64,000 nucleotides of DNA from Escherichia coli (lineage in GTDB: Bacteria; Pseudomonadota; Gammaproteobacteria; Enterobacterales; Enterobacteriaceae). Below are positions 1 to 5,159 of the stretch, one piece after another. The notes below the pieces were generated by a model. The model did not search any database, was not told the DNA's origin, and worked only from the letters and a program-made list of their open reading frames with translations. The position numbers were made by a program, and so were the translations under genes. The number at the start of each line of letters is the position of its first letter. The first letter of the stretch is position 1. The DNA lies in assembly GCF_965641715.1 (NCBI RefSeq), contig NZ_OZ282453.1; one strand, written 5' to 3'.

Positions 1-185
1 CAGATTAATGTTAAGCGTCTTGCAGGACGCGTAATGTTAACTGGGGCTTTTCTCTATCTGCCTTTGGTGTTCATGCCTGAGGCAGATAGCCTCAAGCACC
101 CGCAGCAATTCTACTTAAGTTAGATAAGCTTTTCTATGGTATTCTCTCAGCGTCCCGTAAATACAGTCTCGGCTCATCATTTTTA

Positions 186-443
186 TCACAGGTGCGAGGA
201 AAATATATAGCGCCCTCCATCAAGCATAACGAAATACATTTTCCATTCATCGCCATTCCTCAATTTAATACGAAGACTTTCCCCGCAAGTGTATTTATTA
301 AACAACTGTTCCGATGTGCTAGTAAGAGGTATTTTTACCGTTATTACAACTACTGCCCCACCATTTAACTCTCGAAGTTCAGCATCCGCATCCACAAAAG
401 ATGAATAAATGTTATGATCTGGGTAATCAACAATTAACTGCAT
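186..443 (-). CDS. Hypothetical phage protein (85 aa)
   Basis: ORF with AAGGAG-type RBS upstream of an internal ATG (MQLIVDYPDH...); AT-rich; no family recognised. Confidence 0.4.
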   Translation of the reverse strand: MQLIVDYPDHNIYSSFVDADAELRELNGGAVVVITVKIPLTSTSEQLFNKYTCGESLRIKLRNGDEWKMYFVMLDGGRYIFSSHL

Positions 444-582
444 ATTCACTCCTTAAATATAGCAACTAAAACAAACAACGATTTAACAGTAGGAATTGTT
501 TTTATAACATATGAACGGTGCAAGATCTATCCAGATGAAGCCTCCCCTCACCCCCCCCGTCTCATTACATGCATTTACTATC

Positions 583-1098
583 TCACCGTAAAACATCCTC
601 CACGCTTATCAGTCCGTTTCGCTTCAGGTAGTCCATCGCCTTCTCCGGTAATTTGCAGTCCGGCTTGGCTTTTTTCAGTTGGCTGACCAGTCGTTTAACC
701 CACATTGTTAATTCGCTAACCTGATTGCCGGAAGCTGGTGGGTTGTCGGCTTTACCCAGAATGACAGCACTGCAGGCCTCTTTGAGTACCCAATCAACAG
801 CATCTTTCCATGCTCCTGTTTCGACTGGTGGATTCTCACGCTTTACCTGTTCATAAAAGCGCACGGCTTTAACCAGTCCTTCTGATGTCAGTGGCACAGG
901 CGGGGCAGTGAATAACGCCTGAATTTCATAGCTCGGCCTGTCGTTGCAATCCTCTTTTGTCGGTACATATTTCCAGTCACCAACCCACGGCTCCCCCTGT
1001 GAGTCCGTAATGCCTTTTTTCACGTAGCGATATCGCCATGCAACTGGTTTTGCCTGCCCTGCCGTTTCATGTCCTTCCTGATAATTAATCTCGCTCAT
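583..1098 (-). CDS. Hypothetical phage protein (171 aa)
   Basis: Clean ORF, 4-nt overlap with the upstream gene in a leftward operon; no family recognised. Confidence 0.5.
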   Translation of the reverse strand: MSEINYQEGHETAGQAKPVAWRYRYVKKGITDSQGEPWVGDWKYVPTKEDCNDRPSYEIQALFTAPPVPLTSEGLVKAVRFYEQVKRENPPVETGAWKDAVDWVLKEACSAVILGKADNPPASGNQVSELTMWVKRLVSQLKKAKPDCKLPEKAMDYLKRNGLISVEDVLR

Positions 1099-1289
1099 TC
1101 ATCGCCCCACTCATCACAATATGCTTCGACCGGAGTTTTTCCTGCTTCGTAGTCATAACGCCATGCTTCAGCATCAGCGGCACTTCCACCGCGTAACTCT
1201 GCATAGTCCATTAACAGTTCATGCCATTCTTCAAAACTGACGTTGTATTTAGTTGAACCAAAATCAGCCATTTTGTTCTTCCTCCTCAT
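1095..1289 (-). CDS. Small phage protein (64 aa)
   Basis: ORF overlapping its neighbours in the same leftward gene string; acidic C-terminus. Confidence 0.4.
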   Translation of the reverse strand: MRRKNKMADFGSTKYNVSFEEWHELLMDYAELRGGSAADAEAWRYDYEAGKTPVEAYCDEWGDE

Positions 1290-1446
1290 CTTTTATTTCG
1301 TGATATGAGTAATTGCAGTAGTTAAAGAAAATTTCTTTTGCTTCGTCCTGTATTTCATCTGGTGTCGCACCATCATCCACTTCGAATACATCCTCAAAAT
1401 CTCCACCAGCTATTCCCGTTTCAATAATTATTCTGAACTTTCGCAT
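1264..1446 (-). CDS. Small acidic phage protein (60 aa)
   Basis: ORF overlapping the 3' neighbour; highly acidic C-terminus (DEEEEQNG). Confidence 0.35.
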   Translation of the reverse strand: MRKFRIIIETGIAGGDFEDVFEVDDGATPDEIQDEAKEIFFNYCNYSYHEIKDEEEEQNG

Positions 1447-1541
1447 TTCATTACCGCCCTTTCGGGCGGCCTCCTGATGTTCTGAGGGTGCAGAAATCCC
1501 TCCGGTTAAGGATTAAATTTTATTTACAACACTAAATTTAA

Positions 1542-1742
1542 TTATTCAGGCGCGCGAATCTGTTCCGCACAATGCAACAATGCTTCTGTCACTTCCTTAA
1601 GCGTTACGGTATCGGCATCATCCAGTCCTGCAACTTTTGCGTGCCTGGCAAACGCCGCGCAAAGGTCGTTAAACGCCACCGCCCGTACATCAGCCAGGAA
1701 AGCGTTAGCAGCAGCCAATTCCTGGTAGTCAATCCTGCTCAC
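1542..1742 (-). CDS. Small phage protein (66 aa)
   Basis: ORF whose start overlaps the stop of the upstream 141-aa gene (ATGA-type overlap). Confidence 0.4.
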   Translation of the reverse strand: MSRIDYQELAAANAFLADVRAVAFNDLCAAFARHAKVAGLDDADTVTLKEVTEALLHCAEQIRAPE

Positions 1743-2164
1743 TGCGCCGCCTCCTGAAAATTCCCCTGATAGAAAGCCAGTACACGCTGCATAACTTCAC
1801 TATTCCGGCACTCGCGACAGATTATGTTCAGACGCCTGTCATAGCGGCGTATTTCTCCGTCTGGTAACGACCAGATAAGGTCCGGATCAACCACAGATGT
1901 TTTTTTCTTCAGCTTTGCCCTTGAGAGTTTTTTGCGGGCATTTTGCCAGTCCTTACGAGCCTGTTCAGACGGGAATAACCCGTAACCAGAGTTGTATACA
2001 TCGCCACTGGCAACCAGCTCTCTGGCAAGAACGCTCATCAGATATCTTGTTGCCCCAGTTTTAGCTTCCAGTTGTCGTAACGTCTCGCGCCCACTCTGGC
2101 GTACGAGTTCAACAACCTGCCCTTTAATTTTTTCCCGCTCTTCTTGTGTAAAAACTTTTGCCAC
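1739..2164 (-). CDS. Phage early protein (141 aa), immediately downstream of the replication initiator
   Basis: ORF in the position where lambdoid phages carry the second replication gene; basic, contains a CxxC pair (ICRECRNS); function not recognised. Confidence 0.45.
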   Translation of the reverse strand: MAKVFTQEEREKIKGQVVELVRQSGRETLRQLEAKTGATRYLMSVLARELVASGDVYNSGYGLFPSEQARKDWQNARKKLSRAKLKKKTSVVDPDLIWSLPDGEIRRYDRRLNIICRECRNSEVMQRVLAFYQGNFQEAAQ

Positions 2165-2204
2165 AAGCCCTCCTGAAAATTACCTCATGACCAGAAATTA
2201 ACAC

Positions 2205-3281
2205 TTACCCCCTGAAGCCCGGCGGAATTTCGTTATCCGGTTCAGAAATATGATTCACACAACGCTGGTTGTTCGTGCCGCTTACCGGGAGCAACCAGGG
2301 GTTCTCAAAATTCCGGTCCGGTCCAAAAAACGTCGTCGCTCGCTGAACAAATTCCGTTCCCGTTTTCCCGGTAGCCGCCAAGTATCTTGCGTAACGCCTC
2401 ACGCCATCCAGCATGGCCTCTGGTGGCACCCCCTCGCGTAATCTGGCCTTCCAGGCACTGAAAGCGGATTTCTTCGGGTTTGCTCCGGCACGCAACGGGT
2501 ACTCCCGCCAGACCTGTTCGAACGCATCCGGATAATCCACTCGTCCCACAGACAGCCCGGTGTTTTCCGGGACTACCCGATCGGCTTTCCGCTGAATGGC
2601 GGAATCGGCTTCAGGCTGCTGCAGTTGGTGTGATTGCTCCGGCCTTGGGGTCATCACCTGCTGCACAGCGCCCGAATCGGCTTTCAGCGCATACGCTGAA
2701 TCGGCTTCCGGTGTCGTGCCTGCTGGCTGACCAGGATTGACGGTCTGAACATCCCCTGCCTGGTTCGTGGCGTTTTTTACGCCATGGACCATAGTGTTTT
2801 GATCTTCTTGATCTGTATCTTTATCTGTATCTTTATCTGTCGTGACTCGTCGTGACATGTGCGTGACATTTCGTGACGCGCCGTGACAATCGCCATTTTG
2901 TTCCCGCTTTCTTTCCCTCTCTCGCTGCGCCCTCTTGCGCTCTGCAGGAGATTTTGCGGTTTGCGAAATATTGCCGTTGTCCTCTTTAAGCACCTGGCGT
3001 TTTTCCCATCCAGTGATTAAATCACCATCAAGTACCCGCCCCTGCATCGTCTGCAAAATTGAATCAATTACCTCTTCTGTCACGTCGAGCGCACTTGCCA
3101 AATCTTCTGTCGTGACATCAATGTGACCTCGCGTGACATTTCGTGACGCGCTCACCAGGAGGTGGATATACACTGCCATCACTGTTGCAATTGGCTGCCC
3201 TGACACCCTGGCAATTGTTCGCCACTTAGGGTCATTTGGCATGTCATGCCATAATCTGAGCCAGGCGTTAGCCATACTCAC
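2205..3281 (-). CDS. Phage replication initiation protein (lambda O-like)
   Basis: 358-aa ORF directly downstream of the cro/cII-like genes on the same strand; internal clusters of phased CGTGAC repeats resemble ori-lambda iterons inside O; acidic/Q-rich central linker. Confidence 0.6.
   Translation of the reverse strand: MSMANAWLRLWHDMPNDPKWRTIARVSGQPIATVMAVYIHLLVSASRNVTRGHIDVTTEDLASALDVTEEVIDSILQTMQGRVLDGDLITGWEKRQVLKEDNGNISQTAKSPAERKRAQRERERKREQNGDCHGASRNVTHMSRRVTTDKDTDKDTDQEDQNTMVHGVKNATNQAGDVQTVNPGQPAGTTPEADSAYALKADSGAVQQVMTPRPEQSHQLQQPEADSAIQRKADRVVPENTGLSVGRVDYPDAFEQVWREYPLRAGANPKKSAFSAWKARLREGVPPEAMLDGVRRYARYLAATGKTGTEFVQRATTFFGPDRNFENPWLLPVSGTNNQRCVNHISEPDNEIPPGFRG
2811..2840. repeat. 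Tandem 12-bp repeat (atctgtatcttt x2.5) inside the replication gene, encoding (TDKD)n
   Basis: Read directly from the sequence. Confidence 0.8.
2841..2887. repeat. Iteron cluster A: five CGTGAC hexamers at 10-11 bp spacing (candidate phage replication origin)
   Basis: CGTGAC at 2841, 2851, 2862, 2872, 2882; the 20-bp unit gcgtgacatttcgtgacgcg is repeated exactly at 3131-3150. Confidence 0.6.
3079..3150. repeat. Iteron cluster B: CGTGAC/TGTGAC hexamers at ~10-bp phasing plus one inverted copy
   Basis: Hexamers at 3111, 3122, 3132, 3142 and inverted GTCACG at 3079; includes the second copy of the 20-bp unit. Confidence 0.55.
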
Positions 3282-3346
3282 CTCTTCTGATACCGAATCT
3301 TTTTACTCACGAGTTGCCGGAAGCGATTCGATATGGCTATTATCAC

Positions 3347-3772
3347 TCAATGCACTGCCACAGCATTTCCTGCCGGGCCACCACGGTTCATCTGATTGAA
3401 ACCGGCGATTGCCACTGCGACAAAATCATCGGCGTCTCTCACCAGTCGCTCCCGCGTCTCCACCAGCTCCCGAAAATAAGCTGAACTGTGGCTACGCATT
3501 CTGGCCACCAGCAAAGGTGGCATTGCCTTTTCGATCGCTGGTAACAACGCCTGAATTTTTTCAACTGCATCAGGGGTGTCTTTCTCTACCCAGCGGAAAA
3601 TTTTCTGGGTATTGCGAGCCAGGGCTTCCGGATGGCTGTCGTCGTACAGTTCAGGAAACGTCATACCCAACTCAAAATAAGCCTGGGTTATTCCAGCTGC
3701 CGGAACTTTTTCGCCATCAGGACGCGCCCAGGCATTCATCGCCATGCGGATGTGTTCATGCTTGATTTTCAT
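3347..3772 (-). CDS. YdaT-like (CII-position) early regulator
   Basis: Translation from MKIKHEHI... resembles Rac prophage YdaT as remembered; strong RBS (AAGGGGGG); lies downstream of the Cro-like gene. Confidence 0.55.
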   Translation of the reverse strand: MKIKHEHIRMAMNAWARPDGEKVPAAGITQAYFELGMTFPELYDDSHPEALARNTQKIFRWVEKDTPDAVEKIQALLPAIEKAMPPLLVARMRSHSSAYFRELVETRERLVRDADDFVAVAIAGFNQMNRGGPAGNAVAVH

Positions 3773-3998
3773 GAATCCCCCCTTGGTTAGAAGGCGGATT
3801 ATGATCAGAACCGGGAATGACAACCGTCGGTATGTGTAACTCATATTTGAGCGCCCCGGCAGTGACTGCCTGAATTAGCAACGCCCATTTCCACGGAACC
3901 TCTTCCCCCCACATGCTGACTGTGGTTTTTGACGTTCCTAGAGCTGCGGCTGTTTTAACAACTCCGCCAAAATAGCCTAATACTTCTGATTTTTTCAT
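3756..3998 (-). CDS. Cro-like HTH regulator (YdaS-like)
   Basis: 80-aa ORF from MKKSEVLGYFGG... with GGAG RBS; divergent from the CI-like repressor. Confidence 0.6.
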   Translation of the reverse strand: MKKSEVLGYFGGVVKTAAALGTSKTTVSMWGEEVPWKWALLIQAVTAGALKYELHIPTVVIPGSDHNPPSNQGGIHENQA

Positions 3999-4089
3999 GA
4001 GTCGCTCCATAAAACTGAACGCCAAAAGTTTAATAATCAAAACCAAAGAAAGTCAAGAAACAAAACCATCTGTGTTTTAAAATCAAAAC
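3999..4089. promoter_or_regulatory. Divergent immunity promoter/operator region (pR/pRM equivalent)
   Basis: 91-bp AT-rich spacer between divergent cro-like and cI-like starts; contains inverted repeats AAACT-N10-AGTTT and AAAAC-N7-GTTTT. Confidence 0.5.
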
Positions 4090-4728
4090 ATGAGCAAGCA
4101 AACAATATCTGAACGCATAACCCAACGTATGCATGCGCTAAACCTGAAAGGCAAAGACCTTGTCAATGCCACTGGCGCATCAAAAGGCTCCGTAAGTCAA
4201 TGGATGAACGGTGGAGGAGCGCCGTCCTCGCGTTACATAAGTTCACTGGCAAAAATATTGAAAGTAAACGAAAATTGGCTTCTTAATGGAGGAGAGTTAA
4301 ATACAGGTGATTCGCTTGATCTATCTTTACCGCCGATAAAAACGGTTCCGCTACTATCACTTCAGCAGGCAGCAAGCTGGAGTGATTATATGAAAAATTC
4401 CTCAATAACCTCTTGTGTGCAGCTTGTCGGAGAAATCCCGGCCAATACCTTTGCAGTTGTTCTAGAGAGTGACAGTATGTCAACATCTGGTGGGGGAGTT
4501 TCCATCCCAAATGGTTCAACAGTTTTTGTTGATCCCGATCGAACCGTACAACCAGGAAATATTGTCCTTGCCTTACCCAAAGGGACCACAACACCTGTCA
4601 TTCGTAAACTGGAGATAGAAGGGCCGGATATTCTTTTAGTCCCCACGAATCCTCGCTACCCTTCAATTATGCTGGATGATCTATCTTGCATATTGGGCGT
4701 ATGCTTTAAAATTCAACAAGATATTTAA
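4090..4728 (+). CDS. CI-like prophage repressor (N-terminal HTH, C-terminal S24 LexA-like peptidase domain)
   Basis: 212-aa ORF with an HTH-like N-terminus (GASKGSVSQWMNGGGAPS) and a C-terminal region with the look of a LexA/CI autocleavage domain; divergent from the cro-like gene. Confidence 0.8.
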   Translation: MSKQTISERITQRMHALNLKGKDLVNATGASKGSVSQWMNGGGAPSSRYISSLAKILKVNENWLLNGGELNTGDSLDLSLPPIKTVPLLSLQQAASWSDYMKNSSITSCVQLVGEIPANTFAVVLESDSMSTSGGGVSIPNGSTVFVDPDRTVQPGNIVLALPKGTTTPVIRKLEIEGPDILLVPTNPRYPSIMLDDLSCILGVCFKIQQDI

Positions 4729-5159
4729 CCGACCTCATCTATTTGATTAACTGTATGCCATCGTGGTGATGGCTTAACAGCTGCCTGCTTAAAATGTTTT
4801 GATAAAAAAACATTGACCTGAAAAGTTCATTTTTCTAAACTTCATTCATTCCCTCTCCCCACCCCACAGAATGCAGGGCAATACTTCGAGTTACCAGGCA
4901 GTGGTCAGGGGTTAAGTAGCCAGCCTGAGGCGTAAGAACATGACGGCAGGGTCCAACTTTAATAACTATGCAGCAGGTTTTTGTTCCGCTACCCCGGCGT
5001 TAAGGGGAAACAGAGGATTTCTCAGTGGGCGAAGTCAAACATCAGAATGGAAGGCATCACGGGATCGGCAAAGAAGCAGCAATGGCGCTTTATATTGACA
5101 TCAGCGCCATTGCCGGACAGGTAAGAGTTATCAGAGCGGTAACTAAGCGGTATGCGTCT

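Follow-up and report, generated by a model that had tools for sequence, protein, structure and literature searches.

In phage lambda, the interval between the replication gene P and Q holds ren and the nin region. Ren makes lambda resistant to Rex-type exclusion, and tR2 and the terminators that follow it in the nin region make late expression dependent on N. The Escherichia coli DNA described here (contig NZ_OZ282453.1 of assembly GCF_965641715.1) is a stretch of 64,000 nucleotides (nt), referred to throughout as the window, and it carries a block of six small minus-strand genes, g1 to g6, at positions 186–2164. Like ren–nin, this block lies between replication genes and Q, opens with a gene from the PHROG of Ren, and consists of small genes that look dispensable, overlap in part, and would be read from pR. 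In contrast to ren–nin, it is without any Nin family, no tR2-type terminator was found in it, and hok/sok is embedded in the region. It also differs in harboring Ead/Ea22-type modules, which in lambda and in Shiga toxin (Stx) phages sit in the early-left exo–xis region.

Rac and Qin of K-12 and their intact relatives (ydaS/T/U, lygF, hokD–rem–ydfU–Q) share the gene families and the gene order of this locus. Unlike them, the copy in the window is without the DnaC-like YdaV and the DUF1627 protein YdaW, has a different replisome organizer, and differs from the Rac record in the slot of g2. In K-12 Qin, relBE presumably stands at the place of g6. Plasmid R1 hok/sok and the chromosomal hokD are matched by a leader and stem that score above the Rfam threshold, with a candidate −10 element correctly placed for the modelled 5′ end. 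However, the window contains no more than the first 101 nt of the element, and the −35 region varies by allele because a mosaic junction falls in the promoter spacer.

A moron, in the sense of Juhala and Hendrix, is a gene of atypical composition that has been inserted together with a promoter and a terminator of its own. g6 resembles morons in being AT-rich, in lying between genes that are adjacent in relatives, in having boundaries at gene edges, and in its presence/absence polymorphism. In contrast to morons, the g6 cassette replaces a 104-base-pair (bp) allele and is no pure insertion, has no terminator, and offers only a weak promoter candidate.

It is very probable that positions 1–4728 of the window are the early-right operon of a Rac/Qin-type lambdoid E. 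coli prophage, that the six open reading frames (ORFs) are mosaic cassettes in its replication-to-Q interval and not nin genes, and that the inverted repeat at 54–89 is the stem of a hok leader. The features are as follows, in the direction of transcription, with lengths in amino acids (aa) and Shine–Dalgarno sequences abbreviated SD.

2205–3281, minus strand: replisome organizer (O-like), directly upstream of the block; phrog_3729, E 4.2e-255; RefSeq name "phage replisome organizer"
1739–2164, minus strand: g1, 141 aa, DUF977/LygF, Ren-like; PF06163, E 8.5e-30; phrog_142 "Ren-like exclusion protein", E 2.7e-48
1739–1742, minus strand: g1/g2 overlap, GTGA
1542–1742, minus strand: g2, 66 aa, Ead/Ea22-like remnant, GTG start overlapping the g1 stop; phrog_27745, E 1.3e-43
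1447–1549, minus strand: leader travelling with g3 (95-bp gap plus last codons of the upstream gene); the homology block stops at 1549 in L007, L008, and L002
1502–1484, minus strand: g3 leader hairpin 1
1475–1470, minus strand: g3 SD, AGGAGG, part of the leader
1470–1453, minus strand: g3 leader hairpin 2, GCCGCCC-GAAA-GGGCGG(U), 18 nt, in both the minimum-free-energy and the centroid fold
1452–1447, minus strand: AAUGAA, between hairpin 2 and the g3 AUG at 1446
1264–1446, minus strand: g3, 60 aa, acidic DUF7167 protein; PF23768, E 9.1e-13; phrog_1997, E 7.9e-29
1264–1271, minus strand: g3/g4 overlap, ATGGCTGA
1095–1271, minus strand: g4, 58 aa, acidic; matches the C-terminal part of phrog_519, E 8.6e-23; would be coupled to g3 (ATGGCTGA) and to g5 (ATGA)
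1095–1098, minus strand: g4/g5 overlap, ATGA
583–1098, minus strand: g5, 171 aa, modular; phrog_660, E 1.9e-74, with partial matches to other PHROGs
583–742, minus strand: C-terminal module of g5, about 50 aa, separately shared
119–582, minus strand: g6 cassette (spacer, g6, and 3′ tail), 464 bp, 38.4% GC; blastn breakpoints 118/119 and 582/583 against L009 and L002
501–509, minus strand: candidate extended −10 promoter, TGTTATAAA, from a pattern search, 58 nt upstream of the g6 ATG
186–443, minus strand: g6, 85-aa orphan; ATG at 443, SD AAGGAG at 454–449
108–136, minus strand: candidate hok promoter, TAGAAA-17-TAGAAT, from a consensus scan; −35 at 136–131, −10 at 113–108
1–101, minus strand: 5′ end of the hok/sok leader; Rfam RF01794 "sok", 63.6 bits (gathering 59), E 5.7e-13

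The six small leftward ORFs of the original prediction (141, 66, 60, 64, 171, and 85 aa) are all present on the minus strand (6/6). Family matches are significant for five of the six proteins (g1–g5), and because of these matches, together with a ratio of nonsynonymous to synonymous divergence (dN/dS) of 0.27 and an in-frame indel in g6, the six are taken to be genes rather than chance ORFs. Their description as a chain of short overlaps holds for three of the five junctions, while gaps of 95 bp and 139 bp lie between g2 and g3 and between g5 and g6, respectively. The ORF of 64 aa is the longest reading of g4 (1095–1289), but its start is more probably the ATG at 1271, which has AGGAGG 9 nt upstream and is the RefSeq start in relatives. 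The AT-richness noted for the last gene and its spacer of about 140 bp is real (38.4% GC in g6 and 38.1% in the spacer) but not unique, with g3 at 37.2%. g1, g2, g4, and g5 have 45–53% GC, with g5 at 50%, and the window as a whole has 51%.

The position downstream of the replication module, which had been called nin-like, is borne out by near-identical relatives, in which the block has the replication gene on one side and rem, DUF968, rusA, and Q on the other. The minus-strand order in the window is a promoter-like site (4056–4027), a P22-Cro-like gene, a YdaT/CII-like gene, the replisome organizer, and g1–g6, and a LexA-like S24 repressor (4090–4728) is divergent from this operon. Leftward, E. 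coli chromosomes that are 99.2–99.9% identical over 1–2300 continue with hokD, a small gene in the position of rem, DUF968/YdfU, RusA, Q, tRNAs, lysis genes, and terminase. Q is outside the window, about 3 kb past its edge in the near-identical relatives L003 and L091. In UMNK88, the prophage adjoins potC. A GenBank fragment named "Escherichia phage Rac" (MN652886) has the same order, lygF, HP1–HP5, and mok/hok, and its HP5 corresponds to g6 at 93% identity.

The block is, to judge from alignments, a mosaic of independently exchangeable cassettes with boundaries at gene edges. Comparison with relatives gives sharp blastn breakpoints at 118/119, 582/583, 1549/1550, 1703, and 1737/1738. The g2 slot (1550–1737) is filled elsewhere by a DUF4406 gene with an Ead/Ea22 gene and a Zn-ribbon protein, by an SAM (S-adenosylmethionine) methyltransferase, or by a full-length Ead/Ea22-like gene (it is replaced in L007 and L008). 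The original prediction would have failed if all six were conserved core nin genes in the same order in relatives; the whole 2300 bp occur in only 25 of 5426 complete E. coli genomes, some part of them in 4466, and architectures vary among relatives. Of 80 IMG/VR contigs on which a homolog of g3 occurs at 93% identity or more, all hold g4 and 78 the leader of g3; g5 and the 5′ end of hok are present on most, g2 on about 14, and g6 on only 5.

The g6 cassette is the clearest instance of such exchange, and its separate acquisition, which had been suggested for 186–443, is supported by sequence comparison. Strain E9 (L009) is 99.8% identical to the window over 583–2300 and 96.6% identical over 1–118, with 104 unrelated bp in place of 119–582. 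The right edge of the cassette is exactly the g5 stop codon, and the left edge is inside the candidate hok promoter spacer. Between the C-terminal module of g5 and hok, the IMG/VR loci carry 103–110 bp (the 104-bp allele, 39 loci), 463–464 bp (5 loci), or 356 bp (2 loci). Among the complete genomes, at least 80% of 1–600 is found in 41 of 5426, which, together with the 5 of 80 IMG/VR loci, confirms that g6 is present in some relatives and absent from others.

The common 104-bp allele (L009 1620–1723; L019, L070, and 36 other IMG/VR loci) has a GTG that overlaps the g5 stop (GTGA) and opens a hydrophobic ORF of 27 codons, MTRPEAFTTVGIAMAVALVVYSICRWG. This ORF has an in-frame 6-nt insertion in one locus, and a frameshift in P0068 fuses the tail to a g5 homolog; it may encode a small membrane protein, missed by annotation, directly ahead of hok. 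The third allele, of 356 bp (L047), retains the 27-codon ORF and is longer by about 250 bp, in which there is another short hydrophobic ORF, VLVLKCALAIVAVMAIYCLVIVLMNHLSD. ISEc20, an insertion sequence of the IS110 family, lies in the C8/G8 run of the g5–g6 spacer in strains VG12A2 and 1303 (window 549–551 = L008 2049/3499), and IS1 interrupts the block in STEC379 and STEC384.

That g6 is a true moron, i.e., an autonomous gene with its own promoter that is expressed from the repressed prophage and benefits the lysogen (e.g., by excluding other phages), is a tentative and rather doubtful alternative. Its atypical GC content of 38%, the exact cassette boundaries, and the presence/absence polymorphism agree with it. 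So does its occurrence in prophages and in no virion-derived phage genome record: a tblastn search matched one of 50,697 phage records, and this sole match in the phage collection is the Rac prophage fragment. A tblastn search against plasmids gave no match. The candidate extended −10 element is a further point in favor, as its TGTTATA core is kept in three known versions of a diverged spacer that is only 57% identical to that of L004. However, this candidate has no −35 element and is no more frequent than chance, and a standard sigma-70 scan finds no promoter for g6 on the right strand. No terminator-like site flanks g6 in the consensus scan, and the folds of 95–215 and 430–600 give z values of −0.24 and −0.37; transcription from pR would be expected to run through g6 and on into hok. 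The suggestion of a moron is thus not supported in the strict sense, with a candidate extended −10 promoter only and no terminator on either side.

It is improbable that g6 is functionless junk, an ORF decaying within an AT-rich insertion. Decay is suggested by variants with frameshifts or truncations (P0010, P0011, and P0015), by a very narrow distribution, and by the lack of a family or of a strongly supported known fold. In contrast, an 80%-identical copy beside hok in L004 differs from g6 with a dN/dS of 0.27 at a dS of 0.53 and an in-frame indel of 6 nt, and the two copies share their start codon and the SD AAGGAG, while the spacer is otherwise only 57% identical. The longest g6 ORF reaches a GTG at 449, inside this SD. 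The exact g6 protein is found on at least 999 contigs, and a homolog of the same length and 42% identity occurs in another phage-like context. By these measures of sequence evolution, g6 is a real gene under purifying selection.

The distant homolog, P0016, is also an 85-aa protein and was the only one besides E. coli-type copies of g6 in an exhaustive HMMER search of 1.84 billion representatives. Two further matches, P0017 and P0018, were rejected as eukaryotic tandem-repeat artefacts with cadherin or other domains. The P0016 gene is AT-rich (37% GC vs 44% for its contig) and lies between the 3′ end of a methyltransferase gene and a gene for a pol III theta (Hot-like) subunit, both of the kind found in Klebsiella/Escherichia temperate phages. 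The Klebsiella phage context of P0016 is not collinear and is uninformative.

Searches of g6 against PDB sequences and profiles and low-threshold Pfam searches give insignificant matches only (Gp48, E 0.21; DUF5348, E 0.12; PilZNR, E 0.05), and a Foldseek search against viral structures gives none at E ≤ 0.001. AlphaFold2 (AF2) predicts a split beta-barrel with a mean confidence (pLDDT) of 84.9 in one model and of 46–59 in the other four, so that the prediction of a small split beta-barrel for g6 is a shaky one. A PilZ domain was considered and rejected: the (D/N)xSxxG motif is absent, the sole RxxxR (58–62) falls in the C-terminal half and is not conserved in P0016, and the PilZNR match appears in one member only.

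A more ambitious reading is that g6 founds a new family of 85-aa split-beta-barrel proteins (with a YebV/PilZ-like fold) on AT-rich cassettes of the early regions of enterobacterial temperate phages. Its members would act in inter-phage conflict, e.g., by sequestering a nucleotide second messenger or by blocking a host or phage factor, and the cassette would also rewire the −35 element of hok and so couple both functions. This combination is very improbable.

The inverted repeat downstream of g6, CTATCTGCC (54–62), N18, and GGCAGATAG (81–89), is present as predicted, with imperfect arms of 21 nt that extend to 43–63/80–100, but it is unrelated to g6: by its match to Rfam, it is the leader stem of hok mRNA. 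The arms are paired in the RF01794 consensus alignment, of which model positions 1–84 of 157 are matched and the 3′ end is lost at the window edge. The matched RNA is the 5′ leader of hok mRNA, because its strand is that of the hokD coding sequence of relatives. In near-identical relatives, hokD follows 254 bp beyond g6 on the same strand, and hokD or hok–mok is at the expected distance in L001, L003, L004, and L091. The start of the RF01794 model at 101 fits a transcription start 7 nt past the candidate −10 element.

The candidate −10 is in the conserved hok block, while the −35 is inside the g6 cassette (breakpoint 118/119). Since the junction falls within the spacer of this promoter, each allele would supply its own −35 element, TAGAAA in the g6 cassette and TTGCGG in the 104-bp allele, and the difference may alter hok expression.

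That the repeat is the terminator of g6, or that g6 works together with hok/sok, is barely credible. g6 and hok are physically adjacent, the g6 cassette gives the candidate hok promoter its −35, and two diverged alleles of g6 both adjoin hok. However, the repeat is a paired stem in a leader that would be transcribed from a promoter downstream of g6, and no T-run follows it. Furthermore, the hok 5′ block is found in 4291 of the 5426 complete genomes and g6 in only 41, and the distant homolog of g6 is not beside hok.

The likelihood is next to nil that the block is a canonical nin region with conserved core genes in the fixed order of lambda: its position between a replication gene and Q, the Ren-like g1, and a rusA further downstream in relatives (a functional counterpart of NinG/Rap) would suit one, yet none of the six proteins matches NinB, C, D, E, F, G, H, or I in Pfam or PHROGs (a Pfam scan at E ≤ 0.01 gives only DUF977 and DUF7167), architectures differ among close relatives, and a consensus scan, whose reach excludes Rho-dependent terminators, finds no tR2-like intrinsic terminator.

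g1 is related to lambda Ren by sequence, shares PHROG 142 with it, and occupies its position, so that the Ren-like protein looked for in the block is present. Lambda Ren matches phrog_142 with an E of 1.6e-41, and the C-terminal 57 aa of g1 align to Ren at 33% identity (E 2e-6). g1 begins 41 nt past the stop of the replisome organizer, whereas lambda ren overlaps the end of P. The protein is basic (pI 9.8), and its N-terminus is possibly a DNA-binding winged helix on the basis of its PHROG neighbours, as g1 matches phrog_2391 ("DNA binding protein") and lambda Ren matches phrog_1687 ("MarR"). Against the PDB, g1 shows only an insignificant GntR-like similarity. The DUF977 gene is frameshifted in strain rl0044 (L003 7740–8166), and pseudogenisation is frequent in the block.

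g2 is best described from its alignment as an internal-deletion derivative of an Ead/Ea22-like protein that has lost the coiled coil, and not as a member of the family. It is 77% identical to residues 105–166 of a 166-aa Ead_Ea22 protein and matches 8 of 12 of its residues 1–12 (MSRIDYQEL...; MSxIDYQ motif). This 166-aa protein fills the g2 slot in strain ETEC4067. PF13935 (Ead_Ea22) was found in neither g2 nor g5 by the Pfam scan, and neither has a relative among solved structures, the C-terminal domain of lambda Ea22 included.

A direct repeat of 16 nt, GGGAATTTTCAGGAGG on the minus strand, is located at the SD of g2 (1750–1765) and at that of g1 (2169–2184), with 15 of 16 positions (94%) identical and an exact core of 13 nt, AATTTTCAGGAGG, at 1762–1750 and 2181–2169 on the minus strand. 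Cassette exchange, or the loss of g1, may use this repeat as a linker; DUF977 is missing from L010.

g5 is, from its pattern of homologs, a domain-shuffled protein. Homologs of 119, 148, and 170 aa are missing the C-terminal residues (about 50), some homologs are fused to Ead_Ea22 or DUF551 domains, and the C-terminal module alone is common to g5 and an unrelated 133-aa protein in L004 (homology from about 742). The AF2 model of g5 has a pLDDT of 51.6 and is unusable.

The stable core of the block, going by its conservation, is a leader with the acidic pair g3 (pI 4.05, net charge −13) and g4 (pI 4.08, net charge −11), both genes being present at 80 of 80 IMG/VR loci. The leader is conserved in 78 loci as 31 distinct, nearly invariant sequences. 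The g3 SD lies 23 nt from the AUG at 1446, a distance that would be reduced to about 6 nt with hairpin 2 folded. The loop of this hairpin is GAAA or GGCA, both of the GNRA type, and one G-C to A-U double change is found in its stem.

Phage T4 genes 38 and 25 have split initiation regions in which the spacing is reduced from 22 to 5 nt and from 27 to 11 nt, respectively (PMC3014915). As in these genes, the g3 SD is too distant from the AUG, and a stable hairpin between the two would restore a spacing of about 6 nt. Unlike them, the g3 leader is known here from its sequence, and its covariation is not significant. The leader may be a lambdoid example of a split ribosome-binding site of the T4 38/25 type, and the 3′ arm of hairpin 2 could equally be a translational brake.

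The g2–g3–g4 segment (window 1077–1705) is 92% identical to DNA about 6–7 kb into Stx2a phage/ArgO145 records (positions ~6.0–7.2 kb), and the Stx phage entries matching 1077–1705 list an ead/Ea22-like gene. From the usual layout, we take this region to be early-left. If it truly is, the same cassettes move between both early operons.

The block as a whole would be transcribed from pR as delayed-early genes, because no intrinsic terminator separates the genes: the consensus scan finds none on the minus strand of 1–3400, and the spacers fold no better than their shuffles. Overlapping stop and start codons would couple translation of g1 to g2 and of g3 to g4 and g5, while g3 and g6 would re-initiate on their own SDs, the g3 hairpin bringing its SD close to the AUG. 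g6 may also use its own extended −10 promoter, and hok/sok would form a separate unit that starts at about 101.

Lambda Ea22 modulates the lysis–lysogeny decision (PMC7093339, PMC10834534). The products of the block would be small accessory proteins that modulate host takeover, the lysis–lysogeny decision, or phage–phage exclusion. g3 and g4 may be acidic proteins of the host-takeover or anti-restriction type, and g6 would be a small split-beta-barrel binder in phage–phage or phage–host competition. NCBIfam and PADLOC scans gave no match for any of the six proteins, and nothing relevant was found in the literature on LygF/DUF977, the RefSeq protein accessions, DUF7167, or irsA/Rac.

Several points weigh against this account of a prophage early operon made up of cassettes. 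Transcription from pR, translational coupling, and all protein functions are what we infer. Q, rusA, and hokD fall beyond the window edge, and only near-identical relatives show them. In Pfam, g1 belongs to DUF977 and lambda Ren to no family, and the link to Ren consists of PHROG 142 and a local alignment of 57 aa. The frameshifted variants of g6 named above exist, and their shift leads into an alternative frame that corresponds to the ORF at 134–256. The extended −10 motif is not enriched in the window, with 2 found and 3.1 expected. Finally, several natural variants weaken hairpin 2 of the g3 leader, and the covariation of the leader hairpins is no higher than that of shuffle controls in any measure (95% of cells paired).

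Upstream of the block, the Cro-like ORF (3756–4046, minus strand) is listed with a TTG start that overlaps the promoter-like site at 4056–4027. Its Pfam match begins at residue 18, and an internal ATG (MERLMKK or MKK) is therefore probably the true start. The immunity module varies among prophages that are near-identical in the block (window 3750–4730 compared with L003 10171–11034 and L091 12756–13557). The repressor is LexA-like S24 in the window, another one with relBE in rl0044, and yet another in UMNK88.

This region is an ordinary mosaic accessory slot, hypervariable in Rac/Qin-type prophages and already annotated as "hypothetical protein". Most of the original description stands; its nin-like and moron readings agree with the region in location and in evolution, but not in the genes carried or in any demonstrated autonomy. 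What is new is limited to an orphan cassette that is uncharacterised and to a ribosome-binding site that may be structured. Three details are corrected: where g4 starts, which junctions overlap, and what the inverted repeat stands for. The conserved hairpin that separates SD from AUG in a DUF7167 gene is, by its analogy to T4, a lead rather than a result. The evidence that, in this slot, proteins of the Ead/Ea22 type change through internal deletions and the swapping of modules is a modest lead as well. In prophages that are 99.8% identical, the pair of natural alleles with and without the g6 cassette would make the function of an orphan protein and the effect on the hok promoter directly testable.

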